NCBI GenBank assembly: GCA_964632415.1 | Contig: CAZWDM010000008.1 | Location: 7,098 to 71,097, forward strand | Direction of reading: 5' to 3' | Length of the DNA stretch: 64,000 nt | From: an uncultured Dehalococcoidia bacterium | Lineage (GTDB): Bacteria; Chloroflexota; Dehalococcoidia; Lucifugimonadales; JADFKI01 | In this document: positions 12,974-58,326 of the stretch, piece by piece | How positions within the stretch are numbered: the stretch's first letter is position 1 | Layout: each line of letters begins with the position of its first letter | Position numbers and translations under genes: made by a program | Notes under the pieces: generated by a model | Databases searched by the model: none | Seen by the model: only the letters and a program-made list of their open reading frames with translations | What the model was told of the DNA's origin: nothing

Positions 12974-13226
12974 GTTGGTGGGGCCATCTCTTCTAGTCCA
13001 CAGGCGCAGCTATCATAAATTAAACGAAAAGATATGCCGAAACTGATTGCTCTTTTGCAGTGAGTCAGCGAAGATGAAAATGGCGACGATACGACTTTAC
13101 CGCATCACCCCTCGACTACTCTACAACCATACAACTTTACCACCATAGCGGTAAGCAACGAAACAACATCACGGCAATCGTATAATGCGACGCTCGTCGC
13201 CCAAGAGCTTGGGAGTAATACCTATC

Positions 13227-14173: not shown

Positions 14174-14176
14174 CGA

Positions 14177-17432: not shown

Positions 17433-17446
17433 GGCCTGTCGACGAA

Positions 17447-18142: not shown

Positions 18143-18532
18143 CGCTCCTTGTTATCTCAAGGTCTTCCACGGGTTCTCACCGGTCTCGTGCTACGTCCAG
18201 AGGATTGAGTAAATGCGCCAGGAACGTGAACTGGCGCTCTATCCGACTTTTATTGTCGTTAAACAAGTGATTCTGAGGAGCGAGGCAACACTCGTGGGCA
18301 TGACTTATTCTCAGTTCAAGAGCGTAATTGATTGCACCTACTGTCGCTGACCTAATCTCGCTGCGTCCTGCGGATTATGAGGACATCCCTTTCGGCTCGG
18401 GGTTGGTGCTTGTACTGGCAAGTATGGGATTGAAGGAGCCGTCGTCAATGGGCGCTTCCGAGAAAATGCCGCACGGCGGACGTGGTGCGGTCTGATAACA
18501 TTGGACACCTCAGATCTCAGGAGGCAGACGGA

Positions 18533-20330: not shown

Positions 20331-22715
20331 ATGGGCAGCAGAAAAACGGGCGGTGGAGTTGAGGGCGTTTACCGAGCTGCGGACAGGTGGAGGATGAGCG
20401 CCCTTTGTGCCGACGGTTCGCTCTTCACCCCTGGTGAACCCATTTGGACGGGTGAGTGCCTTCGAGAAGTCCGTCGGCGCTTCCTGGACAGGCTAGACGC
20501 CGGCGAGGGCGGTTTCTACCAGAAGTTGGAGGTGCAGTTGGCCGACAGTCCGCCTGAAGTATATCAACTCGTGGCGGAAGCGCTGTACGTTCACTTCCTC
20601 ATCCTGCACCGGAGCGCTCTGAAGGGAGAAACCAAGGCCGCTCAGATCAACAGGGTTCTCCAGTGGTCAGGCGAACCCGTGAACATTCCTCACGAACTGG
20701 TCGCTGGACTGTCTCCCGGAATCGTGCGTCCCGGTAGGGGCTTCCTGAGTTACCGCCCATACCAGGTAGGTGTCATAATCGAATGCGCCGAGCAATGGAA
20801 AGAATTGCACGACGACGAGCGGGATGAAATGAGCAGCGATCCCTGGCGATTCAAGGATTGGCTGAACGGCTTAACGCTCCGGGGCAGCATGTATGTCGGC
20901 CGTCAGAACACGCCTAGGATACAGCGACGGGCGCTGCTTCATCTTCTCTATCCGGATGAATTTGATGCGATTGTCGGATTGGAACATATGAGGGCTATCA
21001 CAGAGGCTTACGCCGACCACGTTACCACTCAGACCGACGATATCGACAGACAGCTGCAGGAGATCCGCCAATACCTGGAACGGAGAGAGAATCGCTCCAT
21101 CGAGTTCTACGAGGACGCCATCCGGGCCGAGTGGGAGAACCCGTCACATCCGGTCAGCGACGGGTACTGGGACGAGTTCGTGAGGGCCGCCCGGTTCCAT
21201 ATTGATGAGGGTCGGTTGAGCTGGGAGGACTTCAAGACCAATGCGGTGCGGAATCTTGGAGCGGCACGCAAGGCCGTGCTCGCAGGTGACGAGAACTGGA
21301 GTGTCCTGGTGAAGCGAGGAATTGCGGGCATTCTCATCCACGCCATTCAGCAGTCCAAGTTCCGCAACTGGCTGGACGATTCGCCTGAGGCCGCGCTCGA
21401 TGCGCTGCAGGCGCTCTGGGCTGAAGGCGATTACGACGTCGGTGAGCGAATCCGCAAGTTCGGAGAGTACTTCCCGACATCGGTATCCAGCGGCGGCGGA
21501 ACTCGCATGAACGTTATCTCGGTGTTGCTGATGGGGCTGGATGCCGACAATTACCCGCCGTTTCGGGTAACAAGATTCGACGAAGCCTACGAACTTACCG
21601 GATACAGTCCAAGAGACATAGATGCGGACGAGGTGACCCTGTACGAGCATGCCCTGGGGTTTCTGGACACGTTCATCGAGGAGGCTGGCAAGCGGGGAGT
21701 CGAGATTTCCAATCGCCTGGACGCGCAGGGGCTCACCTGGCTGGTGGCCGGAAACTACGTAGAGGCGCCGCTGGAGGAACCGCCGCTGGAGGCTGAGCCC
21801 GACCTGGCGAAGCTCTCGGAAGACCTTCTGATTCCGTTGCCCTTCCTGGAAGAGTGGAGGGTGCTGCTCGAAGACAAGAGGCAGGTCATCTTCCAGGGTC
21901 CGCCCGGCACGGGAAAGACCTACATTGCGCAGGAGCTGGCGATCTGCCTCGCCGGATCCGAAGGTCGCATGACGCTGGTGCAGTTTCACCCGTCATATGC
22001 CTACGAGGACTTCGTGCAGGGCTATCGGCCAAAGACCCTTGTAAGTGGGCAGCCTGGCTTCGAACTGCGGGAAGGACCTCTGCTGAAAGCAGCCGCGGCC
22101 GCGCACGCCGAGCCGGACAAGGATCACTTTCTCGTAATCGACGAGATAAACCGGGGGAACATCGCCAGCGTCTTCGGAGAGCTGTATTTCCTTCTGGAGT
22201 ACCGCGACAGGAAGATGAACCTCCAGTACTCGGATACACCGTTCTCATTGCCCAAGAACCTGTACATCATCGGCACGATGAATACCTCCGACCGTTCCAT
22301 CGCGCTTGTCGACCTGGCGCTGCGCAGGCGCTTCCACTTCGTCGACTTCTACCCGGAAGCGCCGCCGGTCAAGGGGTTGCTTCGCAGGTTTCTGAGAAAG
22401 CACGCCGGGGAGATGGAGTGGATTGCCGGTGTCGTAGACCGTGCGAACGGCATCCTTGGCGACAGGAGCGCCGCGATCGGCCCGAGCCACTTCATGAAGA
22501 GAGACCTGACCGAGGACGCAGTGGATCGCATCTGGAGGCACAGCGTCCTCCCTCACGTGGAGGAGCGGCTGCAGGGCGAACGGGATCGCCTGGACGAATT
22601 CAGGCTCGACAGGCTCAGGAGAGATGGTGGTCCATCCGGCGGCTCACCGACCGACGTTATTCAGGCTGACACCGACCAGGAACAGCAGCCGGGTCCGGAT
22701 GATGCGACTGATTGA
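20331..22715 (+). CDS. mcrB: McrB-family AAA+ GTPase with a long (about 500 aa) non-canonical N-terminal region
   Basis: FQGPPGTGKTYIAQELA, FLVIDEINRGNIASVFGELYFLLEYRD, NLYIIGTMNTSDRSIALVDLALRRRFHFVDF. Confidence 0.85.
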   Translation: MGSRKTGGGVEGVYRAADRWRMSALCADGSLFTPGEPIWTGECLREVRRRFLDRLDAGEGGFYQKLEVQLADSPPEVYQLVAEALYVHFLILHRSALKGETKAAQINRVLQWSGEPVNIPHELVAGLSPGIVRPGRGFLSYRPYQVGVIIECAEQWKELHDDERDEMSSDPWRFKDWLNGLTLRGSMYVGRQNTPRIQRRALLHLLYPDEFDAIVGLEHMRAITEAYADHVTTQTDDIDRQLQEIRQYLERRENRSIEFYEDAIRAEWENPSHPVSDGYWDEFVRAARFHIDEGRLSWEDFKTNAVRNLGAARKAVLAGDENWSVLVKRGIAGILIHAIQQSKFRNWLDDSPEAALDALQALWAEGDYDVGERIRKFGEYFPTSVSSGGGTRMNVISVLLMGLDADNYPPFRVTRFDEAYELTGYSPRDIDADEVTLYEHALGFLDTFIEEAGKRGVEISNRLDAQGLTWLVAGNYVEAPLEEPPLEAEPDLAKLSEDLLIPLPFLEEWRVLLEDKRQVIFQGPPGTGKTYIAQELAICLAGSEGRMTLVQFHPSYAYEDFVQGYRPKTLVSGQPGFELREGPLLKAAAAAHAEPDKDHFLVIDEINRGNIASVFGELYFLLEYRDRKMNLQYSDTPFSLPKNLYIIGTMNTSDRSIALVDLALRRRFHFVDFYPEAPPVKGLLRRFLRKHAGEMEWIAGVVDRANGILGDRSAAIGPSHFMKRDLTEDAVDRIWRHSVLPHVEERLQGERDRLDEFRLDRLRRDGGPSGGSPTDVIQADTDQEQQPGPDDATD

Positions 22716-23949
22716 CCTGCAGGAGTACCGGCTGAGTGAGCCGTTGTATCTCTCTGCGATCGAGCGAGACGCACTGCGTGAACTTCTTGGCGCTCGAAGT
22801 GTGGAAAGGGCAGATGTCGACGATCCGCGCCGGTTGTATCGTCTGAGTGCCGGCTCTACCGTCGGCGCGGTGGACATCGGCGATCTATCGGTGCTGATAC
22901 AGCCGAAGGTCGGTATACCGAAACTGCTGTCGATGGCCTGCTACGCTACCGGCGCTTTCAAGCCGCAGGAGTTCAGAGCGTTTGACTTCGAGGAGGAGCA
23001 GGCGCTTCCTGACACCCTAGCGCTAGCGCTGGCCTCCGCTGCGCGCAGGGCGTTCTCTCGCGGGCTGCTGCACGGATACAGGCGGAAGGAGGAGGCGCTG
23101 CAGACCGTGCGTGGACGTATCAGGTTCGCCGAGCAGATTCGGCGCAGGTACGGCGCGCCCCTGCCGGTCGAGGTGCGCTACGAAGAGTTCACCGAGGACA
23201 TTCTTGCGAACCGCCTGGTGAAGGCCGCTGCGAATCGCCTGGGCAGTATGCGCTTGCGGTCTTTGAGGGCGATCAGGGGACTCAGGTGGGTCGCCGGCGT
23301 TCTGGGAAACGTATCTGCCGTAAAATTTCCCCGTTCGGCCGTGCCGGAGGTCACATTCGATCGGCTGAATCAGCACTACCGTGACGTTGTCGAGCTGTCC
23401 CGCCTCATCCTGCGACATGGCGCATTCGAGGCTCGCCGCGGCGCTGTGCGGGCATCCGGTTTTCTTATGGACATGAATGTCGTCTTTCAGGAGTTCGTGA
23501 CGCGGGCGTTGCGCGATTGCCTGGGCGCCTCGGAGCGGATTCTGCGCTCGGAGCAGAGGGTTCCTTTCGATGAAGGTCCCAGGGTATATCTTCGTCCCGA
23601 CCTGTCCTGGTGGGACGGCGGGCAATGCACGTTCGTCGGTGACGCCAAGTACAAGAATCTGGCCGGTTCCCGGGTTCCCGTTGGCGACCTGTACCAGCTA
23701 CTGGCCTACGCAACTGCGCTCAATCTCCCCGGTGGGTTGTTGATTTACGCTCAGGACGAAGCGGAGACGGGTGTATTCGATGTGCTTAACTCCGGGAAAC
23801 GACTGGAGGCCGCTTCGCTCGATCTCTCGGGCACTCTGGAGGAAGTGCTGGAATCGGTGGAAGGGGTGGCGCGTCAGGTCAATGCACTGCGAGTCTGCTC
23901 ACTCAAGTATCCAGCTCGCTATCCCGGCGAGCCTCCGCCATATACCTGA
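22699..23949 (+). CDS. mcrC: McrC-like PD-(D/E)xK nuclease subunit
   Basis: Starts at ATGATG 22699, overlapping the mcrB end. The C-terminal nuclease core is PDLSWWDGGQCTFVGDAKYK followed by DLYQLLAYA. Position and size are typical of McrC. Confidence 0.8.
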   Translation: MMRLIDLQEYRLSEPLYLSAIERDALRELLGARSVERADVDDPRRLYRLSAGSTVGAVDIGDLSVLIQPKVGIPKLLSMACYATGAFKPQEFRAFDFEEEQALPDTLALALASAARRAFSRGLLHGYRRKEEALQTVRGRIRFAEQIRRRYGAPLPVEVRYEEFTEDILANRLVKAAANRLGSMRLRSLRAIRGLRWVAGVLGNVSAVKFPRSAVPEVTFDRLNQHYRDVVELSRLILRHGAFEARRGAVRASGFLMDMNVVFQEFVTRALRDCLGASERILRSEQRVPFDEGPRVYLRPDLSWWDGGQCTFVGDAKYKNLAGSRVPVGDLYQLLAYATALNLPGGLLIYAQDEAETGVFDVLNSGKRLEAASLDLSGTLEEVLESVEGVARQVNALRVCSLKYPARYPGEPPPYT

Positions 23950-37528: not shown

Positions 37529-37599
37529 TCCGAAGGCAGGAGATGACATGACAATCGGCTGCGAGAGAATCCAAAGGTAAGCATAGCAGGAGGTAGGAA

Positions 37600-38160
37600 G
37601 TGTTTGAGAACGGCATTGGTGTAGAGCAGTTACAAGTCGCTCATGCTCTCAGCCAACTGGTCATTCCAGTGGGCGACGTAGCTCCATCGGTGGCAAACCA
37701 GGCGGGTGAGACGGGGGTGGATACTCTCTTCAACATAATCGAGCTTGGCACCCGCATCTTCATTGGCTTGCTCACGTCTGCCGCCGTACTTTACGCAGGT
37801 TGGGGAGGCTTCTTGTTGATGAGATCTGCTGGCAACCCGCAGATGCTCGAAAAGGCCAGGATGCAGGTCATTCTGGCGCTTGTCGGAGTGGGCATCGGTG
37901 TGTCGGCGTTCCTGCTTGTCGGAACGGCGATTGACTTCATCTCGGGAGCGTCCGGCGGCACGGTCGTTGATGTGGGTGATGTGAGCAAGGTCAACAACAC
38001 GGGCAGGCAGGTGCCGCCGGGTAGCTTCCTTGGCATATATGGGGGTGAGGCCGTTCTATGCCCGAATTCGGATCCAGGGTGGAGCGCGAGCGTGAGACCT
38101 GAAGTGTTTGCAGCCTGGGGTTGGGCTGCTGGACCACCTGTAGTTTGCACTAGTAAGTGA
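37600..38160 (+). CDS. VirB2/TrbC-like pilin candidate A with Cys-bounded C-terminal extension
   Basis: GTG start with AGGAGG RBS. Two-helix hairpin IFIGLLTSAAVLYAGWGGFLLMRSAGNPQMLEKARMQVILALVGVGIGVSAFLLVGTAI (TM - short basic loop - TM, as in TrbC/VirB2 and T4SS_pilin families). About 70-aa C-terminal tail with two Cys (AVLCPNS..., ...VVCTSK). Confidence 0.55.
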   Translation: MFENGIGVEQLQVAHALSQLVIPVGDVAPSVANQAGETGVDTLFNIIELGTRIFIGLLTSAAVLYAGWGGFLLMRSAGNPQMLEKARMQVILALVGVGIGVSAFLLVGTAIDFISGASGGTVVDVGDVSKVNNTGRQVPPGSFLGIYGGEAVLCPNSDPGWSASVRPEVFAAWGWAAGPPVVCTSK

Positions 38161-38203
38161 ATTTAACCAAATAGTGCCCCTTAACAGGAACAGGAGGTAA
38201 GAA

Positions 38204-38773
38204 GTGTTTGAAAGCGGCATTGGTGTAGAGCAGTTACAGGTCGCTTACGCCCTCGGCCAACTGGTCATTCCAGTGGGCGACGCAGCTCCATCGGTGGCAA
38301 ACCAGGCGGGTGAGACCGGCGTAGATACTCTCTTCAACATAATCGAGCTTGGCACCCGCATCTTCATTGGCTTGCTCACGTCGGCAGCAGTGCTATACGC
38401 GGGCTGGGGTGGATTTCTGCTGATGAGGTCGGCGGGCAATCCCCAGATGCTTGAGAAAGCCCGCATGCAGGTCATTCTGGCGCTTGTCGGCGTAGGTATT
38501 GGCGTGTCGGCGTTCCTGCTTGTCGGAACGGCGATTGACTTCATCTCGGGAGCGTCGGGCGGCACGGTCGTGGACGTGGGTGACGTGAGCAAAGTCAATA
38601 ATGCGGGCAGAGTGGTGCCTGTAGGCAGTTTCCTCGGTATCTACGGCGGCGAAGCGGTACTTTGCCCGACAAAAGCGCCTTCACCAGCGTGGGGGACAGA
38701 TGCCGGTGAGGTCGGCGCGGATTGGGATTACAACACAGTTGCGGATGCTGATAACACCTGTACGAGTAAATGA
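38204..38773 (+). CDS. VirB2/TrbC-like pilin candidate B (paralog of A; divergent C-terminal tail)
   Basis: The transmembrane hairpin protein sequence is identical to A and the leader differs only at scattered residues. The tail diverges after FLGIYGGEAVLCP and ends ...DNTCTSK. Confidence 0.55.
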   Translation: MFESGIGVEQLQVAYALGQLVIPVGDAAPSVANQAGETGVDTLFNIIELGTRIFIGLLTSAAVLYAGWGGFLLMRSAGNPQMLEKARMQVILALVGVGIGVSAFLLVGTAIDFISGASGGTVVDVGDVSKVNNAGRVVPVGSFLGIYGGEAVLCPTKAPSPAWGTDAGEVGADWDYNTVADADNTCTSK

Positions 38774-38865
38774 ACCTAGATCCACATCGCTTGCTTATGG
38801 GCACGGTGTGGAATAGAACCAACTGAAGCCCGGGGTGACTCAGCACACTCCGGGCTGATGCAGGA

Positions 38866-43049: not shown

Positions 43050-43646
43050 GTGATATTCGAAGCGATGTCGATAGAAGTAATGCAGGAGCCGCTGCGGTGG
43101 GCGGAGTCCGTGCGCCCAGCATTCGAGGACATCGTTCAGATGACCATACATCAGCAGACGTCCTTTGCGGACTCCGAGATCAGGGCCGCGCTGGATTTCT
43201 CCAGGGCGTTTTCTCGGCTGTTCATCATGCTGTGCGTGGCTGCTTCCCTTGTCGGCATCTGCTACGGCTCCTTTCTACTGCTCTCGTCGGGTGGAGAGCC
43301 GCGAAAGCTTGAGCAGAGTCGCACCGTATTCAAGAATGTCGCGATAGGACTGGTGCTGTCGATTTCATCCTACCTGATTCTCAGCCTGGCCATCACGATA
43401 ACGATTCAGACCATCGGACTTCCGGAGACGGTGCGTTTCTGGGATGACGCGGTGTTCCAGGATGACTTCGGTATCTACGAGCTGCTGGACGGCAGTGAGT
43501 ACGCCCTGCAGGGGGAGGTCATAATGCTCGATGGTCCCGAGCCGGTTGTCTGCTCGGACTCGTTGCCTGACGTTGCGAGCGACGCTGGGTGGAACTGGCA
43601 CGACAACTTGACGGATACCGAACTGGGGGGATGTAAACGCTCATAA
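43050..43646 (+). CDS. VirB2/TrbC-like pilin candidate C with Cys-bounded C-terminal extension
   Basis: LFIMLCVAASLVGICYGSFLLLSSGGEPRKLEQSRTVFKNVAIGLVLSISSYLILSLAITI has the same TM - basic loop - TM layout as A and B. The C-terminal tail has a GIY motif and two Cys (PVVCSDS ... GGCKRS). The start may be the ATG at 43065. Confidence 0.45.
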   Translation: MIFEAMSIEVMQEPLRWAESVRPAFEDIVQMTIHQQTSFADSEIRAALDFSRAFSRLFIMLCVAASLVGICYGSFLLLSSGGEPRKLEQSRTVFKNVAIGLVLSISSYLILSLAITITIQTIGLPETVRFWDDAVFQDDFGIYELLDGSEYALQGEVIMLDGPEPVVCSDSLPDVASDAGWNWHDNLTDTELGGCKRS

Positions 43647-46784: not shown

Positions 46785-49052
46785 ATGATGACTCCACAAC
46801 AGGACGATAATGCGTGGCGCAGGCACGAGGTGCCGACGTACACGCAGGCACAAGATACCTGGCTCTTCGGCCTGTCCTTCAGGCAACTCATAACGATTGC
46901 CATTGGCGCGGGTGTCGGCTATGCCGTCTATCAGATGTTGTTCTTCCTGGACATATGGTTCAGGATCGGGATCGGAGTCGTCGTTGTTCTCATATCGGCC
47001 GCATTTGTGGCGCTCAAGCCGGGTGGCCGGTCACTCTTCTCGGTGCTCTATGAACTCATTTCATTCCAGTTCCGGACCAAGCACTACACCGACCTGACCA
47101 GGCATGTCGTTGCCTCCAGTCCGACAGACCAGTTTCGCCCGCAGCGACGCCGAAAGACGTTGAACATTCCGATACCCACGCCGAGCAACACAGTCTACAT
47201 CAGGCTCAGACTGCCGATAGGAGGCCGCAGAGACTCCGCAGAAGCCGTCATAATCGCGCTGGTTGGATCTGCTGTTCTGCTCAGCGGTATTGCCTGTTCC
47301 GTGCAAGCCCAGGAGACCGAACACTACATCGGAAAGCGCATCTACCTCGAGTCTGTGGTTATGAAGTACAGGGACTATCCGGTGAGCGCGGAGGTCAACA
47401 CGGCCACTGTCCGAATGAAGTCCGCAGCGCCTTTGCGCTGGTCCCAGCCGAGACTGCTGGAGTCGCTTCAATCCGTGACGGAGCGCAGGGCGCAGGCGAC
47501 AACTGTAAGACCGGCGAGGCGACAGGGCGCAGGACTGTACGGAGGCGGAGATATCCCGCCGATATACGGGATAGCTGAATCGGATGGCTTTGCCTTCGAG
47601 AACGTTCGCCTTGATGACACGAGGCAGATACGCCCCTACTGCGATGTGCCGCTGGAAAATGGACAGCTTCTGACCAGGTCGGGAGGTGATGCCTACTATT
47701 TCCGACACCATACGAACAGGTGTCGAATGCTTCAGCCCACCGACCTCGCATTCATCGGAGACGAGGGTGTCGGGCAGGAATACTCGGTGTCCAGGCCCAC
47801 TATGACCGTTCAGTGGGAAGACATCAAACGCAACAAGGGGGCGCTACGACTGCGCGGTCCGCTGATGCCCTATCCGGCGCCGTCACTCTACGACCTGAAC
47901 CAGATATTGATTGACACGGACTCGGAGCTTCTAAATCCTGGGCAGCTATGCGACCCGCGCGAGATCAGCGTGTTGAGTCTTGGCTTGCAGACAGTGCGCC
48001 CGGCCAACCCGGGTACGGTGGACTACTTCGATGGGCGTTCAGGACGGCTCATCGGAGGAGAGGTGAAGGTGTGCAGACTCGAGAATCCAAACAGGGTGGC
48101 GAATATCGGACTCAAGGAGACCGTTGTGTTCGCGCAGGGCCATGCCGACTATGAGATCAAGGTTCGGCCTATTGTGACGACCTTGTTGCCCGACAACATA
48201 GTGAACCGGGCGGTGGTGAGGGTATATGACGTTGAGGGCGGTGGAAGTCAATTGGGACCTGACTTCATCGTGCCGAAGCAGGCCGATGCTGACTATGACC
48301 CCGCCAAGCCGAACATTGTGAAGTTCATCGTGCCCGCCGGAGTAATGATGGGTAAGGACAACCCTGGCGAGCTGGATAAGGGCAAGATCCAGATTGAACT
48401 GGAAGTGCACCATGCCGTGACGGTGAAGCGACCCGTGTATCAGCCCATACAGGAGTTCGCGGAGTTTGGCGATACCCATATCTGGCAGTGCGTCTGCTCT
48501 TGCAGCGGAGGCGGCTGTTCTGCGAGCTGTAACAGCAGAAGGTGTAACAGAAATTCTGATGAACGAACGAGGTATTACAAATACTGGGATCCGCATGAGC
48601 GAGTTGACGACATGGACAGGGCATATCTGCCTACGGATCCCTCATCAGGCGTGGTGCTGCTATTCACTCAGACATTTACATTCGAGTCTATCGAGGTCTC
48701 TTTTGATAAGTCCTTCCAGACCCTGGTCTATGTCGAGCCCACGCCGCGCGCCGGCCGGCAGCGCCAACCTGACTACTACAACCAGGACGACGACCTGGGA
48801 TACATAGGTGGATTTCTTGGAGGGGAGGCACTGACCTGCGGCCCGGATGTCGCGACGACAGCCAGTGGAGAACCGACGGGATGGGTGTGGGTCGTGCCCG
48901 GCATAAACAGCAAGGGTGAGGCTTATGGCGGATGCCGCAGGGATTTCCTCTGCAAGCTCCTGGTGCCGCCGCAGGAAGAGATTTTCGGGGCGGGAGGGCT
49001 TCCGACCGAAGAGGACTACGAGTGCGTGGAGTATGACTATGACTCCGAATAA
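46785..49052 (+). CDS. PrgI/TcpE/VirB3-like N-terminal membrane module fused to a ~600-aa extracytoplasmic domain containing a dense Cys cluster
   Basis: N-terminus QDTWLFGLSFRQLITIAIGAGVGYAVYQMLFF..IGIGVVVVLISAAFVALKP fits the PrgI-family pattern (..fGLt.RQl.. plus two TM) and lies upstream of the VirB4-like gene with one small gene between them. The C-terminal region includes WQCVCSCSGGGCSASCNSRRCNRN. Confidence 0.5.
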   Translation: MMTPQQDDNAWRRHEVPTYTQAQDTWLFGLSFRQLITIAIGAGVGYAVYQMLFFLDIWFRIGIGVVVVLISAAFVALKPGGRSLFSVLYELISFQFRTKHYTDLTRHVVASSPTDQFRPQRRRKTLNIPIPTPSNTVYIRLRLPIGGRRDSAEAVIIALVGSAVLLSGIACSVQAQETEHYIGKRIYLESVVMKYRDYPVSAEVNTATVRMKSAAPLRWSQPRLLESLQSVTERRAQATTVRPARRQGAGLYGGGDIPPIYGIAESDGFAFENVRLDDTRQIRPYCDVPLENGQLLTRSGGDAYYFRHHTNRCRMLQPTDLAFIGDEGVGQEYSVSRPTMTVQWEDIKRNKGALRLRGPLMPYPAPSLYDLNQILIDTDSELLNPGQLCDPREISVLSLGLQTVRPANPGTVDYFDGRSGRLIGGEVKVCRLENPNRVANIGLKETVVFAQGHADYEIKVRPIVTTLLPDNIVNRAVVRVYDVEGGGSQLGPDFIVPKQADADYDPAKPNIVKFIVPAGVMMGKDNPGELDKGKIQIELEVHHAVTVKRPVYQPIQEFAEFGDTHIWQCVCSCSGGGCSASCNSRRCNRNSDERTRYYKYWDPHERVDDMDRAYLPTDPSSGVVLLFTQTFTFESIEVSFDKSFQTLVYVEPTPRAGRQRQPDYYNQDDDLGYIGGFLGGEALTCGPDVATTASGEPTGWVWVVPGINSKGEAYGGCRRDFLCKLLVPPQEEIFGAGGLPTEEDYECVEYDYDSE

Positions 49053-49617
49053 GACCAGAAAGCTCTTGCGAGTGGTGCGACGGCTGGGAATGGCCTTTCC
49101 GGTCCTCCTTATTTTTCAGGTTCTCCAGTCGGGAACAGCTGCGGCGCAGACACCGGTGGAGGGTCCCTGGCGCGACATTCATCAGATTTTCTGGTTCACC
49201 GACGCCGATTATGACATCACAGATCCGGGCTCAGGATACACGCGCAACGCGGCCCAGCGCTTTGCATATGGAGATGTAAGACGGTCCCAGTGCTATCACT
49301 TTAACCATAATGGTCCCGAGGCCGACGAAGTTAACGGCCTCTACTGGATGATGAGTTGTCGCCTCGGACTCGTGACGGGAGCGATTACATGGATAGGAGT
49401 AGGAATAGCTCTGATGGCACTGGCATGGGGTGGCGTGATGTGGGTGGTTGACGCAGGAGCAGGCGGCGAGAGGGGCGCCGCGCTGCGGAACATGGTCTCG
49501 GGACCGCTCATTGGGCTGGGCATCATGTTTTTCGCCTACATCTTTGCGCGTTTTGCGTACACGGTAATCAGGTACAACTTTGATAGGTACATATCGGGCG
49601 AGGGCTTTTGGCTTTAA
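49033..49617 (+). CDS. Secreted/membrane protein with a C-terminal VirB2-like two-helix hairpin (pilin candidate D)
   Basis: Signal peptide LGMAFPVLLIFQVLQSGTAAAQ. C-terminal LVTGAITWIGVGIALMALAWGGVMWVVDAGAGGERGAALRNMVSGPLIGLGIMFFAYIFARF. It sits between the VirB3-like and VirB4-like genes, as virB2 neighbours virB3-virB4 in classical operons. Confidence 0.4.
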   Translation: MTMTPNKTRKLLRVVRRLGMAFPVLLIFQVLQSGTAAAQTPVEGPWRDIHQIFWFTDADYDITDPGSGYTRNAAQRFAYGDVRRSQCYHFNHNGPEADEVNGLYWMMSCRLGLVTGAITWIGVGIALMALAWGGVMWVVDAGAGGERGAALRNMVSGPLIGLGIMFFAYIFARFAYTVIRYNFDRYISGEGFWL

Positions 49618-49644: not shown

Positions 49645-52113
49645 ATGGTAGCGGAACACGAAAAGCGGACGGCAGCGGGGGTCGAAGAGGAGGATGGGAA
49701 GCAGAGCGACAGCGCCGGTGCTGGCCTTGATGGAAACGTACTCGAAGGCGGCGGCAACCTTCCCCTGGACGATGTTGGGCTGGAGAGCGCGGAGGCTCAG
49801 GACGGAACTGCCAGGAAGAAAATGCTGTGGCTTTCCAAGCTGATAGACGGCATCTTCAAACAGAAAGAAGAGGAAGACCCTGTCGGGCTGGCCGCAACTC
49901 TGGACATGGAGGAAGAGGAGCGCAAGGCATTTGAGGAACGTGAGAGGGAGTGGCCTACGAGCAGGGTCGACACGCTCCCGACAATCAGGGACTTCTTTGG
50001 CATCTCGCACATAGGCGACGGCAACCGTATCGTGCGCAAGGACGGGACTCGTATGGTCGTGTTCGAGTCTGCCGGCAAGGAACTGTCGCGAGCGAATATC
50101 CAGGGCTTCGCTGGGGCGCTGAACTCCATCCAGTGTCCTGTCCAATTTCTCATCAGACAGCATCCGCCTCGTCTGAACGGATTTAGGCTGCAGATGCGAC
50201 AGGAGAGGGCACAACGGCTGTCGGAGAAGCTCGCCGATGCGGCTGACGACCTCGACAACCTTCTGGCCGAGCTTGAAGATCGAGAGGGACTGATGGACAG
50301 GCGGTACTACATCGTCTGCGACGAGGAGAATACCGATGAGGTGTCGGCAGCCGTAAGCAGGCTCAACCTGAGGGCCGGATACCTCGCCGAGACCGCGCTG
50401 GACATCTTCCTGCTCTCCGCAACCTTCGGGCAATCGCCGGCCGACCTTCCCGAACAGGAGCGGATTCATTACCGAGAACTGCCCGCATCGGTTAAGTCGG
50501 ACAACGGTGTGTTCCGCAAGACCTTCTACGTCAAGAAATTCCCCCGCATGATGACGGTGGGCTTTCTGCAGTCCCTTCTGACCATCGGGATTCCGATGGA
50601 TCTCTCGATTCACCTGCTCCCCATATCGTCAGAGCATGCGATCTCGATGCTACAGTCGCAACTCACGAGCATGCAGGCGGCGGCGAACGCGCAGCTGAAG
50701 CGCACTGGACAGGTGGGCAGTAAGGAGCAGATCGCGCTTGAGGATATTCTTCGCCTTCGCGATGCCGTTATGAGGGGCGTGGAGCGCCTGTTCAACACCA
50801 ATATGGCAATCACCGTGACGGGCAACTCAGAGCAGGAACTCCGTGAACACATAACGACGCTCAACTCGATGCTCAAGGCGGTTCTCGCTGAGACCGATGA
50901 GCTCACCTTCGGTCAGCGCAGCGCCCTCCGCACGACGATGCCACTCGGGGACAACGCGACGAAGCGCTGGGTAATGCTTGACACCAGCACGCTGGCACTG
51001 ATGTTCCCGTTCAGCCCGCAGGACATAGACACCAGGACTGGAACGCTCGTGGGACTTGATAATCGTGCACGGAGTCTTATCACCTACGACGAGTTCAACA
51101 ATCGCAGCGCGCAGAATATGAACTCCGCGATACTCGCCACCAGCGGCGCGGGGAAGTCCTACCTCACAAAGCTGGGCATCGTGCGCCAGCTCACCCGCGA
51201 TGTTCGGGTATATGTCATCGATCCGGAGGGCGAGTATGTCGATACCTGCATAGCGGCAGGGGGGCGCGTTTTGACGCCAGGTGTTCCGGGGCAGGGCATG
51301 AACCCGTTTGTCGTCACTGAGACGGGCGCGGACCTCATGGAGCGGATAGACAATCTGTGCAAGCTTCTGCAGGTGATGATAGGGCAGAGACTTAATCCCA
51401 CGCAGTATGGCGAACTCAACAAGGCGATGGTGGAATACTACGGCAAGGCGACGGTTGGAGGACAGGGCAACTGGACGGGACTGTTCAATCATATCCACAA
51501 GGAGCAGCCGGCGATTGCCGCGATGCTGACACCATTCTACGACGGCTCAAAGCAGTATCTTCTTTCGGACGAGGGCACTGACATGCTTCAGGATGAGGCG
51601 CACATGACGGTATTCAATTTGCGGCTCGTGGAGTCCGAGATGAGAGCTGCGGCGGGTATGGTGTGCGCTGAGACGGTATGGACGATGGCGGCACGGGACC
51701 CGCGCCGGCGGAAGCTCGTCGTAGATGAGGTCTGGTCAATCCTTCAGGACCCCGAGGGTGGCGGATTCATGATGAATACCGCGAAGCGCGCCCGCAAGCA
51801 TATCCTCGGGCTGACCAGTATCACACAGGACGTTCAGGATCTGCTGGCGGTGAATTCCAGCGAGGGTGTGCGTGGCAACAGCGGCCGTGCGCTGATCCAG
51901 AACGCGAGCTTCAAGGTGTTGCTGCGACAGGACCCCGCGTCCATCGAGATGATCCGTGAGACGTTCAACCTTTCCCCTGAGATCGCGTCGGAGCTTCCGT
52001 CGTACCCGACCGGCAGGGGGCTGCTGGTGACTCCGGACGGCTACTTCCCGATGGAGATTGAAGCGTCGCCGGTGGAGGCTGAGATTATCGAGTGGACAGC
52101 AGGCAGGCACTAG
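49645..52113 (+). CDS. virB4: VirB4/TrbE/PrgJ-family type IV secretion ATPase
   Basis: Walker A ILATSGAGKSYLTKL. Walker B KLVVDEVWSIL. The N-terminal domain block FYVKKFPRMMTVGFLQSLL is typical of VirB4 homologs. AGGAG RBS upstream. Confidence 0.85.
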   Translation: MVAEHEKRTAAGVEEEDGKQSDSAGAGLDGNVLEGGGNLPLDDVGLESAEAQDGTARKKMLWLSKLIDGIFKQKEEEDPVGLAATLDMEEEERKAFEEREREWPTSRVDTLPTIRDFFGISHIGDGNRIVRKDGTRMVVFESAGKELSRANIQGFAGALNSIQCPVQFLIRQHPPRLNGFRLQMRQERAQRLSEKLADAADDLDNLLAELEDREGLMDRRYYIVCDEENTDEVSAAVSRLNLRAGYLAETALDIFLLSATFGQSPADLPEQERIHYRELPASVKSDNGVFRKTFYVKKFPRMMTVGFLQSLLTIGIPMDLSIHLLPISSEHAISMLQSQLTSMQAAANAQLKRTGQVGSKEQIALEDILRLRDAVMRGVERLFNTNMAITVTGNSEQELREHITTLNSMLKAVLAETDELTFGQRSALRTTMPLGDNATKRWVMLDTSTLALMFPFSPQDIDTRTGTLVGLDNRARSLITYDEFNNRSAQNMNSAILATSGAGKSYLTKLGIVRQLTRDVRVYVIDPEGEYVDTCIAAGGRVLTPGVPGQGMNPFVVTETGADLMERIDNLCKLLQVMIGQRLNPTQYGELNKAMVEYYGKATVGGQGNWTGLFNHIHKEQPAIAAMLTPFYDGSKQYLLSDEGTDMLQDEAHMTVFNLRLVESEMRAAAGMVCAETVWTMAARDPRRRKLVVDEVWSILQDPEGGGFMMNTAKRARKHILGLTSITQDVQDLLAVNSSEGVRGNSGRALIQNASFKVLLRQDPASIEMIRETFNLSPEIASELPSYPTGRGLLVTPDGYFPMEIEASPVEAEIIEWTAGRH

Positions 52114-53025: not shown

Positions 53026-53201
53026 TGTTGGAATGGAAGAGTCCGGAATAGTTGAAGGGAAATGCATCCACCTGCAGGTGCCGGACGAGTGCATCCATTG
53101 CCTGTACTCGATGAGAAGGCAGGCGCTCAGGCTGATACTGGTCATCTGCTTGAGCATCATTCTCATGGCGGGTCTTGCTTTCCACTCAATGGGGTGACGA
53201 A

Positions 53202-53840
53202 ATGGAAACAACACTTATTGACAAGTTCCTGTTGCTGCTCACCTTCAACGGCGAAATGAAGAAGCCCAGGGGTAGCGTTCTGGAGTACGCCGTTGCCGGC
53301 GCTGTTCTAATGGAGCTTGAAAAGCAGGGGTTCATAGACAGCGACACGGAGAATATCATTCCGCTTCGCTCGGATCTGCCAGAGGATGAGATTCTCGCCC
53401 AGGCACATAGGGAGGTCGTCAGCAAGGGCTCGATGAGGATCAGGGACTGTCTCCGTTGGATGGCAGTGCGGGCGCCGGGACTGCATAAGGCGGCATTGGC
53501 AAGACTCATCGAGAAAGGGTTTCTCGTGAAAAGACAGCGACGAAAGATGCTCGTCTTCCAAGAGGAATACGTCGAGGCGACAAACCATGCGGGCCATGAC
53601 CTCAAGGTGCATATATTTGACACGCTTAAGAGTAACGACACCCCTCTCCCGGACGACATCAGGCTCATCTGCCTAGCGGACGCCACCGGTCTGCTCCGTG
53701 AGATGTTTGACAACGAAGAGAGACGCAAGACGCAGGACAGGGTGGAGGCGGTGCGCAGACTTGACCTCGTGGGACAGGTCACTGCGGTTGCCATCGAGGA
53801 TGCGGACCTGTCTATCACGATTGAGATTCAAGAACCATAG
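53202..53840 (+). CDS. GPP34/GOLPH3-family protein
   Basis: LIDKFLLLLTFNGEMKKPRGSVLEYAVAGAVLMELEKQGFI and the later LARLIEKGFL fit the GPP34 pattern seen in high-GC Gram-positive genomes. Confidence 0.65.
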   Translation: METTLIDKFLLLLTFNGEMKKPRGSVLEYAVAGAVLMELEKQGFIDSDTENIIPLRSDLPEDEILAQAHREVVSKGSMRIRDCLRWMAVRAPGLHKAALARLIEKGFLVKRQRRKMLVFQEEYVEATNHAGHDLKVHIFDTLKSNDTPLPDDIRLICLADATGLLREMFDNEERRKTQDRVEAVRRLDLVGQVTAVAIEDADLSITIEIQEP

Positions 53841-53857: not shown

Positions 53858-56602
53858 GTGGCTACGACGGGCCTGGTTGAAATATATGAAAGTGCACTCT
53901 ATGAACCACGGGAGTCGCTCGTCAAGGTGATTCCCCCTCGGGAGGGGAATTTCAATCTGCAGAGCTTCATGAACGCTCTTGAAGCCCTGGACATGGCCGA
54001 CGAGCGGGTCAGCCTGGAGATCGCCGCGGTCAGGGGTAAGGTCGAGATGTTCGTGCGCTCGCAGCGAGCGGACAATGTGATCACCTCGCTTGTGTCTCAC
54101 TACCCGAACATAGTTTTCGAGGCGGTTGACAGGAAGGACGATCCGCTCTACGTGGAGCAGGAGACCGAGAACGCATGGAGACAGGTACTCTGGCCAGGCG
54201 GCGACGAGTGGATGCCCTTCCAGGTCTATGACGAGCGAAATCCGCTTGAGCATGGGGGCGACCCCTTCATAGACATGATCGCGGGCATGTCCAACGAACT
54301 GCGCCCGGGTTCCCGCGTGGTGTCGAGGCTGGTGCTCACGCAGAAAGACCACAACTGGTCGGAGGATTGGCGGAGCCGCGCCATGAAGGGCATCGGCAGC
54401 GAGAACCAGATGCTCGCCGACCAGATGCGGAAGGAGGAACGAAAGAGTGAGAAGCCCTCTGGATCCACGTCGAAGGACGACTCGATGGACTCTGAGGCTA
54501 CGATGCAGCTTGTCTATGCGATCGCTGCCCTTATGGGGTTGGGCCTCATTGCCTATCTCGCGATGACCTTCGTCTGGCCGCGACTGTCTGAGGGGTCGGT
54601 CTGGGACATCGTGCTGGCATGCGTCGTGCTCGCGGTGGCTGTGGTCCTCGTGGGGCTTGCGCTCTTCTGGCTGGGCATAAAGACGGGGGTGTTCAAGAGG
54701 AAGGAAGCGCCGAGGTTTCAAGACCCTGACCTGGTGCGTCTGCGGGTCGAAGGCGCGGCGTTCAGGATGGAAGTGCAGGTATTTGCGATCCTGAGAGAGG
54801 ACAGGGCTGAAGACGAGGCCATAGAGCAGTTGATTCGACCGGCGGTCGCGGCCTACCGGAGCTTCGACAATCCGCTCGGCTGCCAGTTCGACGCCGGACC
54901 GATCGAGAAACTGGACGGCTTGACTCCGGACATTGAGAACATGGACTACGTGGGTGGAGCCAAGAGTAAGAACTCCATCGGAGAGGGTGTCATTGGAACG
55001 CGCGAGGTGGCGGCGTTCTGGCATGTGCCGGGCGAGTCCGCCAAGGTGCCTGGACTCAACCGCGCCGGCAGCGTCAGGATCCCGATGCCTGAGCCCATGT
55101 TCGTCATGGACCATGAGACGCGCATGCGCTCGGTACTGGTGGGCACGGAGGCGTACCGAGACGGCGGACTGCGGCTGGCTTTCCTGCCGCCGGACGTGCT
55201 GAAGCGCCATCATCTCTATGTGGGCAAGACCAGGAGTGGCAAGAGCACCCTGATGCTGCACGTGGGGGTGGGCATTCTTCTGCAGAAGGTCATAAAGGTG
55301 TCGGACTCGGCGCTTGTGGTGGTGGACCCGCACTCGGACCTGGCGAACGACATCATAATGAGAATGGGTGTGGATGCTGGACGCTTCGTGAGGCTGATCG
55401 ACATGAGCGACACCGAGCGGGCGTGCGGCATCAACCTGTTGGACGTGAGGGAGTTTCCGAATCGCGACATCACCATCCCGACAATCATCTCGATAGCGAA
55501 GTCCTCATCGGTCAACTGGGGAGATCGTATGGAAGCGATCATGACTTGGACATTCGCCACGCTTTTCGAGGCGAACAGGCACCGTAAGCCGTTGGAGCAG
55601 TACACGATCTTCGACGCCGTGCCATTTTTAACAAAAGACAACGAACGTAAGAAAATTATCCGAGAGTCGAAAAGTAAGGAAATTGCCGAGTGGTGGGCGC
55701 ATGTGTTCCCCACCCTCGCACCGAAGGACGACCAGACTGCGCTTGCGCCCGTTCTACGAAAGATAACGGAGTACGCGAGCAGTCCGATAGCACGTCGTGT
55801 GCTTGGACAACGCCGATGCACCATTTCGATCGAGAAGGAGCTGGCGGCGGGAAACGCCATCATCGTGAACACCGCTCGCGGCGAGGCAGGGCCGGAGGTA
55901 TCGGCGATCATCGGGTCGTGCATCCTCAATTTGACGGAATTCATTCTGCGTGAACAGAGCAAGATCGAGTCTGGTAGCAGGCGACCAGTGACGGTGATTG
56001 TGGATGAGATGCAGACTTTCCCGGGTGTGCGCTACGACAATATGCTCGCGGAGCTGAATAAGTACGGCGGAAGCTTGGTTATGGCAACGCAGAGCCTGGA
56101 CCGCCTGAATGAGATGGGCGAGAGCGGCAGCATGCGCGAGACTATCCTTTCCAACCTGGGCTGTCTAGCGGCCTTCCAGGTGAACGCGGCGGACTCGACA
56201 CTTCTGAAGAACGAGCTGGATTCCACTGCTCTCAAGGAAGAAGACATTATGCGATTGCCACCGCACAACTGCTACGGCAGGGTGAACCTCGACTCCGGGG
56301 TGGAGTTCTTCTCGATTGAGGTGCTGAAACCGTTTGATCCTGATCCGGTGATACTCCGGCTCGTGAGGGAGGCATCCGAGATGTACACCACGCCGGCTGA
56401 GGAAGTGGATGCAGAGCATGCGCGGAGCATGGACAGCAAGATTTTCGACATATTCGCCTCTGAGCATGAGGAGGAAGAAAAGAACCCGACCTCTGATTAT
56501 GACCAGGACGTGGGTGAGAGTGACGAAGATGACTCCGCGGCTGATGATGACGACGAAGGCGAGAGCGACGAAGACGAGGCTCAGGCATCAGGAGATAGCT
56601 GA
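53858..56602 (+). CDS. Type IV coupling protein (VirD4/TraD/TcpA-like ATPase) with a long N-terminal domain, two TM helices and an acidic C-terminal tail
   Basis: Walker A HHLYVGKTRSGKSTLML. Walker B PVTVIVDEMQTF. Also VMATQSLDRL. TM helices LVYAIAALMGLGLIAYLAMTFVW and IVLACVVLAVAVVLVGLALFWLGI. Tail DYDQDVGESDEDDSAADDDDEGESDEDEAQ. Confidence 0.8.
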   Translation: MATTGLVEIYESALYEPRESLVKVIPPREGNFNLQSFMNALEALDMADERVSLEIAAVRGKVEMFVRSQRADNVITSLVSHYPNIVFEAVDRKDDPLYVEQETENAWRQVLWPGGDEWMPFQVYDERNPLEHGGDPFIDMIAGMSNELRPGSRVVSRLVLTQKDHNWSEDWRSRAMKGIGSENQMLADQMRKEERKSEKPSGSTSKDDSMDSEATMQLVYAIAALMGLGLIAYLAMTFVWPRLSEGSVWDIVLACVVLAVAVVLVGLALFWLGIKTGVFKRKEAPRFQDPDLVRLRVEGAAFRMEVQVFAILREDRAEDEAIEQLIRPAVAAYRSFDNPLGCQFDAGPIEKLDGLTPDIENMDYVGGAKSKNSIGEGVIGTREVAAFWHVPGESAKVPGLNRAGSVRIPMPEPMFVMDHETRMRSVLVGTEAYRDGGLRLAFLPPDVLKRHHLYVGKTRSGKSTLMLHVGVGILLQKVIKVSDSALVVVDPHSDLANDIIMRMGVDAGRFVRLIDMSDTERACGINLLDVREFPNRDITIPTIISIAKSSSVNWGDRMEAIMTWTFATLFEANRHRKPLEQYTIFDAVPFLTKDNERKKIIRESKSKEIAEWWAHVFPTLAPKDDQTALAPVLRKITEYASSPIARRVLGQRRCTISIEKELAAGNAIIVNTARGEAGPEVSAIIGSCILNLTEFILREQSKIESGSRRPVTVIVDEMQTFPGVRYDNMLAELNKYGGSLVMATQSLDRLNEMGESGSMRETILSNLGCLAAFQVNAADSTLLKNELDSTALKEEDIMRLPPHNCYGRVNLDSGVEFFSIEVLKPFDPDPVILRLVREASEMYTTPAEEVDAEHARSMDSKIFDIFASEHEEEEKNPTSDYDQDVGESDEDDSAADDDDEGESDEDEAQASGDS

Positions 56603-58326
56603 TGCCTGAGCCTGCTGACATCACTGTTGGGCAACTGCTGATGACTCTCTCGCAGTTGCCTTTTCTCTCTGCTGACGAGATTTCAACACTGATCGACTTC
56701 GATGCCCGTGAAGTCAGAGCTGACCTGAAAGTGGCGCAGTGTAATAGACTCGTTGGTTCTGTGCAGTACCGGCGCTCGCCGTCCGTCACTCTGAGACGCT
56801 GGTACTTGACGCGCGAAGGTACGCTGATTGCTGCCAGGGAAGAACGCACGACTCCAGAGCGACACTTGTCGCGCAATCCCGTCAGCACGGAGTGGCAGCG
56901 CTCGCTGCTCCGCAGGCTGGATGCGGTTGACGTGCTCTACCGGATGCTTCACGAGATGGTGCAGTTCACCGGAGATACCCCGGAGTGGGCCTGGCATCGT
57001 GACGGTCCATTCGATGCGGCGGTCAGGTTCCCGGACGGCAGGCGTTTCGTTGTGATGCGGCTGGGCAGCACGCTCTCATGGCAGGCGACCAAAAGCAGGC
57101 TTGGTTCGCTGTATGAAGGGCAGAACCAGCGAAACGCGCCAATCGCGCTGGTCATTGTGCCGGGCGACATAGAGAAACGGCGCATCACGACGCTTCTGAA
57201 GCACCGTGCAATCTACATGCATATAGCCGCAGAGAGCGTGCTGAGCGAGCGGGGCATGAATGCCCCAACCTGGGAGCCTGTCGGAACGGAGCTGCGCGAC
57301 ATCACGCTGGAAGCCATTCTGCGGAGGTCGCGCCGCAGGGGACGAATTCCGGCGCGTCCACGTCACTATAACGACAGGCTGCCGTCACAGGACATTCACG
57401 AGAACATAACGAGTGTTAATTTCTTAGCGAGCGAGCTTCGGCCCGCCGAGCGGCAGATGTTGCGACTGCTGTACGACTGGCCACTCGGCAGAAGTGAGGA
57501 GTTGGCAAGGATTCTCGATGTGTCCATTGATAGCTTGTACCAAAAGCAGGCATCTCTTCTGAGGCGCAACCTCATCCACAAGGTCGAGATCGGGGAATCG
57601 TACCGGGAGCGCCGCGAGAACGGCACACGGCTCGTCCTGACCGAGGATGGACGACGAGCGTTGGCCTGGACGGACCGCAGAGACCTCTCGGACCTGACAC
57701 GCCACTGGCAGCTCACAGCAAGCGGGGAAGATGACCCCAACCCGAAGATGAAAGTCAAGGTTCGCGGCTTCCGGGTGGACGGCACAAAGCTGCGTCCCCT
57801 CATCAGTCAGCTGCGTCACACCGACGCCGTGAGTGAAATCACGGCGATGTTGACAGTGGAAAGCAGGACTCACTCGAACTACCGGCTGGTACAGGCGGTT
57901 CCGCCGCATCGCTGGGAGAGGGTGTTTTGGTTCAACGGCAGACGGGCGCAGATCAGCCCAGATGCGACATACATGCTGGAGTACCAGGGAGAGACTGAGG
58001 TGAACTTCCTTGAGTACGAGGAGCGAGCAGATAGGCCGTCACGCATGAGGTCGAAGATCCGAGGGCATGAGAGCTACTTCGGGGCATTCGAGACCGAAGG
58101 CGACTTCGACGACGTTCTGCCGAGGGCGCTCTTCGTGTTCAGAAACGTAGAGACCGCGAGCAGATTCGGCGTATTTCTGATGAATGAAGGGACGGCGCGA
58201 ATGCCGCTTGTCGTGTCGAGCATGGATGTGTTGAGGCGCGAGGGCTTTTTCGGCAATAGCTGGACCTGGCCCTGGGAGCAACAGCGAGGGCCGGTGCCGC
58301 TCTCGGCACTGCGACGGTCGAGGTGA
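56602..58326 (+). CDS. Replication-relaxation family protein, internally duplicated (two wHTH + nuclease-like modules); relaxase candidate
   Basis: The start overlaps the T4CP stop (TGATG). The second half has LRHTDAV..., ISPDATYMLEYQGETEVNFLEYEERADRPSRMRSKIRGHESYF, matching the H ... PDa ... E.E/D..t.....K...Y layout of the replication-relaxation family. The first half repeats the order (wHTH, YLTREG, PFDAAVRFPDGRRFVVMRLGSTLS) with the acidic block lost. Confidence 0.55.
   Translation: MPEPADITVGQLLMTLSQLPFLSADEISTLIDFDAREVRADLKVAQCNRLVGSVQYRRSPSVTLRRWYLTREGTLIAAREERTTPERHLSRNPVSTEWQRSLLRRLDAVDVLYRMLHEMVQFTGDTPEWAWHRDGPFDAAVRFPDGRRFVVMRLGSTLSWQATKSRLGSLYEGQNQRNAPIALVIVPGDIEKRRITTLLKHRAIYMHIAAESVLSERGMNAPTWEPVGTELRDITLEAILRRSRRRGRIPARPRHYNDRLPSQDIHENITSVNFLASELRPAERQMLRLLYDWPLGRSEELARILDVSIDSLYQKQASLLRRNLIHKVEIGESYRERRENGTRLVLTEDGRRALAWTDRRDLSDLTRHWQLTASGEDDPNPKMKVKVRGFRVDGTKLRPLISQLRHTDAVSEITAMLTVESRTHSNYRLVQAVPPHRWERVFWFNGRRAQISPDATYMLEYQGETEVNFLEYEERADRPSRMRSKIRGHESYFGAFETEGDFDDVLPRALFVFRNVETASRFGVFLMNEGTARMPLVVSSMDVLRREGFFGNSWTWPWEQQRGPVPLSALRRSR

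Follow-up and report, generated by a model that had tools for sequence, protein, structure and literature searches.

Tandem pilin-like genes in a conjugative type IV secretion cluster combine a conserved membrane hairpin with divergent, recombining Cys-Trp-Cys tails

Tandem arrays of divergent pilin genes of the PF18895 family lie near VirB4 in Patescibacteria, where 441 arrays of 2–11 genes with an average identity of 25% have been described (PMC12102498), and a 2025 review presents the VirB2-like pilins of this group as the only ones in monoderm type IV secretion systems (T4SSs) (PMC12857230, citing Wang et al. 2023). Here we analyze a 64,000-nucleotide stretch of contig CAZWDM010000008.1 (the window), in which two adjacent genes, W1 and W2, encode the same membrane hairpin followed by tails that differ. 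The explanation toward which we lean, with modest confidence, is that W1 and W2 are tandem PF18895-type T4SS subunits of a Dehalococcoidia-like conjugative element that would display exchangeable surface tips. Our literature search found no paper linking Dehalococcoidia with conjugative T4SSs.

W1 and W2 are arranged head to tail at an offset of 604 bp, both with GTG starts, and the 43-nt spacer between them is without a stable hairpin or stem-loop (coordinates in Table 1). An initial annotation of this DNA had given the two-gene layout, the coordinates, the offset, and several nucleotide strings, all of which we confirmed in the sequence. In W1, an acidic leader (residues 1–38) is followed by the membrane hairpin (39–117), a Gly/Ser linker (118–135), and a tail (136–186) that we name after its Cys-Trp-Cys framework. 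Using AlphaFold2 (AF2) with a 34-sequence alignment, we obtained a model with a short amphipathic helix at residues 8–21, the two hairpin helices at 39–75 and 80–117 with a predicted local distance difference test (pLDDT) score of about 90, and a compact C-terminal domain at 136–186 (pLDDT 86–92 in the full-length model). The linker is predicted to be disordered, yet its sequence is conserved (GASGGT.VDVGDVS). By the positive-inside rule, positively charged loops stay cytoplasmic. The mean net charge across the 34-member family is −4.2 in the segment preceding the first transmembrane helix (TM1), +1.2 in the inter-helix loop, and −7.8 in the C-terminal part; because the loop is positive and the regions on either side of the hairpin are acidic, a cytoplasmic loop and an N-out/C-out topology are predicted, with the tail probably extracytoplasmic, as in conjugative pilins. 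A few residues before helix 1, N-Q-A-G is conserved (window positions 37696–37710, with an equivalent in all homologues); Q34 does not vary among close homologues, and N-Q is found again in the type B proteins described below. The segment recalls the signal-peptidase site and mature N-terminus of VirB2 (A-Q-S-A-G, cut between A and Q), but the likeness is not significant and the leader is not a typical signal peptide.

We compared W1 and W2 codon by codon and calculated nonsynonymous (dN) and synonymous (dS) divergence by the Nei-Gojobori method (NG86). A few replacements occur in codons 1–27, whereas codons 28–133 carry ~40 synonymous changes and 0 replacements, and codons 134–140 carry 3 replacements. 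Accordingly, dN is 0.004 and dS 0.64 for codons 28–133, and the values are 0.006 and 0.76 for the hairpin (codons 40–110); in the tail, dN rises to 0.60 and dS is saturated. The segment GSFLGIYGGEAVLCP is the same protein in both copies though nearly every third codon position differs, and wholesale divergence follows, the point of divergence lying after FLGIYGGEAVLCP. The overall identity of the two copies is 86%. Their differences are clustered, leaving stretches of 19 and 17 codons without any difference (permutation P = 0.003; run-length statistic P <5e-5), and in some tracts W2, but not W1, resembles the orthologue from a related locus, L001. From the clustering and this tract-wise likeness, we recognize W1/W2 as a recombination or conversion mosaic. 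In the single-copy L001 orthologue, however, the hairpin protein is identical at a dS of 2.3 versus W1 and 1.1 versus W2, so that the hairpin is conserved independently of recent conversion. The core is under extreme purifying selection, with omega (dN/dS) of about 0.01 across independent elements, and both selection and conversion act on the W1/W2 pair. These data bear out the initial annotation where it described a shared hairpin with synonymous-only change and purifying selection on both copies, through the codon-aligned dN/dS as well as the L001 comparison. The counter-explanation that it had named, recent gene conversion and nothing else, holds in part: conversion does contribute, but identity with L001 at dS 1.1–2.3 requires more than conversion.

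The same data make it very improbable that the pair has no functional meaning, i.e., that it is a recent tandem duplication with a 5′ part homogenized by gene conversion and one copy decaying at its 3′ end. The clustering of the W1/W2 differences (P = 0.003) would be expected of such a duplication, as would the second pair in locus L006, whose cores are nearly identical in nucleotides and whose tails differ. It is nevertheless contradicted by dN/dS, since ~40 synonymous versus 0 replacement changes in 106 codons imply selection on both copies. In addition, both open reading frames (ORFs) are intact, each with a ribosome-binding site of its own, both tails retain the Cys/Trp/Cys framework and the C-terminal CTSK, and pairs recur in three divergent loci.

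The tails had been regarded as unrelated, a description that we revise. They can be aligned with a few indels at 41% identity, although this alignment alone is not significant, as 6% of composition-preserving shuffles score as high. Their homology is instead indicated by Cys154, Trp173, and Cys183, which are the sole invariant columns of the whole protein and form a framework kept across 34 members with identities down to 20%. Judged by this framework, the W1 and W2 tails are best described as versions of one ~50-residue domain. Exactly two cysteines are present in the tail of 32 of the 34 members, and both window tails end in CTSK, the closing Cys-Thr-Ser-Lys that had already been noted. Modeled alone, the tail adopts a beta-beta-loop-alpha-beta-beta topology with a pLDDT of 94.5 and a predicted template modeling score (pTM) of 0.75. 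Foldseek gave no match for this fold in the PDB (best E 4.4) or BFVD (best 3.2), and none was found in Pfam; a tail-only alignment searched against a set of 5.8 billion proteins returned nothing at E <= 0.01, the domain lacking both the length and the conservation that such a search needs. With the tail predicted to be extracytoplasmic, a Cys-Cys disulfide is plausible, and the two tail cysteines would form one.

Two types of tail can be told apart by their motifs, GSFLGIYGG..C in type A (W1 and W2) and GEVIMLDG..VVC..GW.W..GGC in type B, represented in the window by a third gene, W3. The initial annotation had ascribed to W3 the same hairpin, GIY, and two-Cys design; the gene is indeed a true paralogue with a hairpin and a two-Cys tail, but its GIY does not lie at the FLGIYGG position, where the equivalent segment is GEVIMLDGPEPVVC. 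Outside the hairpin proteins, locus L009 encodes (13096–14265) a 389-aa protein that combines a single N-terminal TM helix with two tail modules and has no hairpin (hidden Markov model [HMM] E 5.7e-11), of which the first tail copy is very like the pilin tails (...GSFLGLYGGQVYICPGSAPQPAWVGEEGEIGADWTW...C). This reuse marks the tail as a portable module. The PrgI/VirB3-like fusion protein of the window contains a Cys-rich stretch, WQCVCSCSGGGCSASCNSRRCNRN, and, near its C-terminus, a tail-like segment, GGFLGGEALTCGPDV...GWVWVV...GGCRR, which may be a further tail module, although its matches are weak (BLASTP E 0.016 versus W3) or not significant (HMM E about 0.3–1).

Among homologous loci, the hairpin is kept and the tail varies, a comparison that the initial annotation had proposed as a check. 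In type A, identity is 79% in the core and 30% in the Cys-Cys loop, which is 28–34 residues long; the corresponding identities in type B are 60% and 33%. Between the tandem copies of L006, the core dS is 0.05, compared with a tail dS of 0.45 and dN of 0.50, and between L002 and L008 the core and tail dS are 0.16 and 0.81. Over 16 kb, the latter two loci have a median nucleotide identity of 96%, whereas their pilin tails are 66–67% identical; only a gene replacement near L002 14.2–14.8 kb and one interval at ~L002 4.4 kb fall below the tail. Conversely, L001 and L002, whose cores diverge most, have tails that are 77% identical. In the linker, W1 carries the variant of L001 and W2 that of L002, while the first half of the W2 tail is that of L001. 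The relationships among tails disagree with those among cores, which points to recombination: the tail, a local hotspot of divergence, is exchanged in this way separately from the core. The exchanged units are not free to drift, however: the first tail half (18 residues) is the same protein in W2 and L001, with synonymous differences between the genes, so that each tail type is itself constrained. Neither silent tail cassettes nor a second tail copy was found in the window by tblastn. We also considered the tails as targets of a diversity-generating retroelement and rejected this possibility, as there is no template repeat in the window and the tails show indels and substitutions of every type, whereas such elements make adenine-specific changes without indels; no reverse transcriptase is present among the Pfam-scanned genes of the window, a scan that did not include every small ORF.

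Constraint on the tails bears on a reading that we consider unlikely, in which W1 and W2 would be non-polymerizing parts of an inner-membrane channel or platform and the tail a pro-domain or processing substrate, its variation reflecting relaxed constraint and recombination. A precedent is RP4 TrbC, of which a C-terminal segment is removed in maturation. A highly conserved linker that is nonetheless predicted to be disordered would be a possible processing site, and a tail omega of about 1.1, as seen between the two L006 copies, would fit relaxed constraint. In addition, no pili are known for monoderm T4SSs outside Patescibacteria (PMC12857230). A dispensable segment would, however, hardly retain the Cys/Trp/Cys framework, together with a fold that is predicted with confidence, in members with as little as 20% identity, or be reused on another membrane-anchored protein, as in L009, and the tail types are conserved as proteins across saturated synonymous divergence (W2 versus L001).

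The variable tip also invites comparison with the known exclusion pairs, Eex/TraG in SXT-type integrative conjugative elements (ICEs) and YddJ/ConG in ICEBs1. If W1 and W2 were entry- or surface-exclusion determinants, the tip would recognize the VirB6-like protein of the donor and so block transfer from elements of its own exclusion group, and the two copies would provide two exclusion specificities. Such a role is consistent with their gene position, which at each locus is just downstream of the gene for the VirB6-like protein, and with their nature as small membrane-anchored proteins with a hypervariable, recombining specificity region. In L002 and L008, however, the extracytoplasmic and TM parts of the VirB6-like proteins are 93–100% identical, whereas the tails are 71% identical with 6 gap columns; the tails differ next to a near-identical VirB6-like partner, so that the co-variation by which an exclusion pair would be recognized is not seen. 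By homology, the core belongs with the PF18895/NF045849 pilin-like proteins and not with known exclusion proteins, and the conservation of the hairpin (omega about 0.01) exceeds what a simple membrane anchor needs. We judge an exclusion function to be quite unlikely.

The hairpin itself can be assigned at the family level. The PF18895 (T4SS_pilin) profile matches residues 40–109 of W1 and W2 with 25.4 and 25.5 bits, respectively (E 1.5e-5, model positions 2–70/71), and matches 27 of the 34 family members at E <= 0.1 (best 6.6e-8); the close homologues P0001–P0003, P0008, P0009, and P0011–P0013 have a precomputed PF18895 assignment. The traits of this family, a two-helix hairpin with a short basic loop and a location inside a T4SS cluster, are present. 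The best-scoring curated hairpin model is NF045849 (NCBIfam, Mbov_0395 family of "pilin-like conjugal transfer proteins"), which matches residues 40–114 over model positions 6–80/80 (E 2.6e-8, 33.4 bits). W1 and W2 thus appear as PF18895-type, "pilin-like" proteins that are related to the NF045849 family and are not equivalog members of it, as far as profiles can tell. The expectation that the hairpin would resemble T4SS pilins held on one side only: PF04956 (TrbC/VirB2) matches 0 of the 34 members in Pfam, and an hhalign comparison of the family with 8 annotated plasmid VirB2/TrbC proteins was not significant (E 0.14, probability 0.4%). A PDB profile search with the family alignment gave chance matches only (E >= 0.097, viral glycoproteins) and no pilin, and the closest PDB match to the full-length model in Foldseek had an E of 0.37, with no pilin in the top 50, helical hairpins being too generic. 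A type IV (T4P) pilin was rejected, as the N-terminus, MFENGIGVEQLQ..., is without the class III motif (G-F/M-x-x-x-E, cut after G) and there is no Pfam pilin or N_methyl match. Remote relatives of the hairpin are numerous: a search of 1.84 billion representatives gave 9762 at E <= 0.001, often with 2–8 hairpins per chain. Those with 3–8 concatenated PF18895-like hairpins (P0017, P0020, P0022–P0025, and others) are fused "pilin arrays", such as a 606-aa protein with 7 hairpins and an 820-aa protein with 8.

In the mechanism that we favor for the tandem T4SS subunits, the invariant hairpin would dock into the T4SS, onto the VirB6-like platform, and/or polymerize; an omega of about 0.01 in the core fits a subunit that packs against its own copies or against this platform. 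The flexible linker would tether a disulfide-stapled mini-domain outside the cell, where the tail loops would be diversified and swapped by recombination, and the two copies would present two tip specificities on one identical assembly core. As its weakest step, the mechanism has the tip contact a variable structure of the recipient-cell or envelope surface in mating-pair formation. The charge distribution supports the surface-exposed tip proposed in the initial annotation by placing the tail outside the cytoplasm, whereas the recipient-specificity or receptor role that went with it is inferred. We infer surface display, possibly as a polymer, from the sequence features described above; pilus formation and recipient recognition are further suggestions of the same kind. 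If the tip does set recipient or surface specificity, it would be a simple, exchangeable means of influencing which hosts conjugative elements can reach, in an environmentally important phylum that has received little study, and the cell contact of monoderm T4SSs would become a testable question.

Several points weigh against these subunits being displayed in this way. The PF18895 scores of W1 and W2 lie just under the gathering threshold of 26.6 bits and the NF045849 score lies below the curated cutoff of 40 bits, and no sequence, profile, or fold likeness to experimentally established pilins is detected. W1 and W2 are without a classical signal peptide, their N-terminus being acidic, with no basic n-region, and weakly hydrophobic (best 12-residue Kyte-Doolittle value 1.6–1.8), and export of the N-tail is an assumption. 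Monoderm T4SSs are said to lack conjugative pili, with Patescibacteria as the sole exception (PMC12857230, PMC9905601). The envelope type of the host, finally, is taken from the Dehalococcoidia metagenome-assembled genome (MAG) of a relative and not from the window.

A bolder version of the T4SS-subunit reading, possible but in our estimate doubtful, is that a Dehalococcoidia-like monoderm builds a true VirB2-like filament whose major subunit carries a plug-in, hypervariable, disulfide-stapled tip on a tether. Each subunit would in that case serve as an adhesin in its own right, and mating specificity would be reprogrammed by tail swapping and broadened by tandem duplication. Conjugative pili would extend to mainstream monoderms, and the tail would represent a new small fold for cell-cell recognition.

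W1 and W2 lie in a T4SS cluster whose features are collected in Table 1. The genes for the VirB6-like protein, the PrgI/VirB3-like protein, the VirB4 ATPase, the coupling protein, and the relaxase are on one strand within 20 kb, and by gene content the cluster is a complete, monoderm-type conjugative T4SS. Upstream of it are a ParA-like ATPase (13185–13892), a tyrosine integrase (15442–16431), and McrBC restriction genes (20331–23949), which give the whole region the look of an ICE with defense cargo; no tRNA gene was found in the window. Between the genes for VirB4 and the coupling protein lies one (53175–53840) for a protein with a GPP34 domain (Golgi phosphoprotein 3 family; E 1.9e-27). The C-terminal half of the VirB6-like protein (residues ~750–1477) is of low complexity and rich in P/S/G/Q, with about five repeats of an E-R-x-x-I-R-x-x-G-x-x-x-F-N-like motif, and is the most variable part of the protein among loci (26–55% identity versus about 90% in the TM core). 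The fourth hairpin gene that had been reported next to virB4 exists, with a weak PF18895 match. This gene, W4, lies between the VirB3-like gene and VirB4 and encodes a protein with two cysteines, a C-terminal hairpin, and, unlike W1 and W2, a typical signal peptide; its hhalign comparison with the family gives E 0.11.

The stem-loops that follow the gene pair in the window have counterparts at the same post-pilin position in L002 (10572–10599), L007 (10573–10598), and L008 (10584–10611), with z scores of −2.1 to −4.5, whereas the stem at that position in L001 is not significant (z −1.3); the position is conserved and the sequence is not. These elements may act as a transcript stabilizer or attenuator that raises the mRNA dosage of the subunit.

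Table 1 Features of the gene pair and the surrounding T4SS cluster in the window
Feature	Position	Strand	Basis
VirB6/TrbL-like polytopic membrane protein, 1477 aa	33095..37528	+	PF19590 TrbL_3 on L001 orthologue; synteny in all related loci
W1 ribosome-binding site AGGAGG	37588..37593	+	Read from sequence; GTG start 6 nt downstream
W1, pilin-like gene, 186 aa	37600..38160	+	ORF; PF18895 and NF045849 matches; AF2 model
W1 hairpin: TM1, RSAGNPQMLEKAR loop, TM2	37714..37950	+	Protein identical to W2 and L001
W1 tail mini-domain, residues 136–186	38005..38157	+	Invariant columns; AF2
W1 tail key residue Cys154	38059..38061	+	Invariant column
W1 tail key residue Trp173	38116..38118	+	Invariant column
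W1 tail key residue Cys183	38146..38148	+	Invariant column
W2 ribosome-binding site AGGAGG	38192..38197	+	Read from sequence; GTG start 6 nt downstream
W2, pilin-like gene, 189 aa	38204..38773	+	Core as in W1, tail different
W2 tail, residues 136–189	38609..38770	+	First half as in L001 tail at protein level
Two strong RNA stem-loops directly 3′ of gene pair	38776..38856	+	dG −42.1 kcal/mol, z −4.9
W3, type B paralogue, 198 aa, hairpin and Cys-Trp-Cys tail	43050..43646	+	tblastn E 3e-8 versus W1; PF18895 E 0.0057
PrgI/VirB3-like N-terminus with large extracytoplasmic region, 755 aa	46785..49052	+	PF12666 PrgI E 2.6e-6; SCO6880 family E 1.6e-4
W4, fourth hairpin protein, alternative start 49039	49033..49617	+	PF18895 E 0.11, L006 orthologue 0.012
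VirB4-type ATPase	49645..52113	+	PF19044, PF01935, PF12846
Type IV coupling protein	53858..56602	+	PF02534 above cutoff; PF12696 and PF10412 weak, below theirs
Relaxase-like protein (Replic_Relax)	56602..58326	+	PF13814 E 5.5e-9

Close homologues are rare, with 14 in 5.8 billion clustered proteins. Among GTDB genome contigs, we found a single relative locus, on the chromosome of a Dehalococcoidia MAG; no relatives were found in JGI metagenome contigs, and no exact-sequence record was found for the window's own protein. Gene order is the same in 9 related loci, the pilin gene always following directly after the VirB6-like gene. This gene is single-copy in L001–L005 and L007–L011 and forms a tandem type A pair in the window, L006, and L012 (3 of about 10 loci), the L012 pair being older and more divergent. 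Type B and W4-type genes occur in every related locus with enough sequence to include them; the four hairpin proteins are therefore separate components that do not stand in for one another. In L011, a DDE transposase gene of an insertion sequence (IS; 17392–18717) separates the gene for the PrgI fusion from the W4-like gene, and the insertion may have inactivated this T4SS.

Compared with described systems, three aspects of the locus are new: the Dehalococcoidia-like host lineage and fully conjugative context of four PF18895-type hairpin genes, an appended Cys-Trp-Cys domain without a known fold relative in Pfam, the PDB, or BFVD, and a core-identical, tip-different organization with recombinational exchange. 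The Patescibacteria arrays resemble W1/W2 in the PF18895 hairpin, the VirB4, VirB3-like, and VirB6-like neighbors, the monoderm-type T4SS, and the tandem paralogues. They differ in that W1/W2 belong to a conjugative cluster with a relaxase and a coupling protein in Dehalococcoidia-like genomes, and in that the W1/W2 core is identical and only an appended domain differs; neither the Cys-Trp-Cys domain nor an acidic leader without a signal peptide is among the features described for those arrays. NF045849 (Mbov_0395/MMCAP2_0565, from Mycoplasma ICEs) likewise stems from a monoderm conjugative element, but its 80 model positions take in only the hairpin and neither a linker nor a tail domain. VirB2/TrbC/TraA (PF04956 and relatives) and the archaeal CedA1/TedC share with W1/W2 a two-helix hairpin, a basic loop, and adjoining VirB3/VirB4/VirB6 homologues, and CedA1 is reported to be exported without signal-peptide processing (PMC9905601), as W1/W2 would be. 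The cleavable signal peptide ending in A-x-A that is typical of VirB2/TrbC is not found in W1/W2, and classical mature pilins, unlike W1/W2, have about 70 aa and no folded C-terminal domain. The multiplied VirB2 paralogues of Bartonella and Anaplasma (PMC12102498) are an analogy only. In design, the W1/W2 tails recall the hypervariable, disulfide-bonded D-region of type IV pilins (PilE/PilA), a surface-exposed and recombining region on an invariant assembly core; these pilins belong to an unrelated fold and secretion system.

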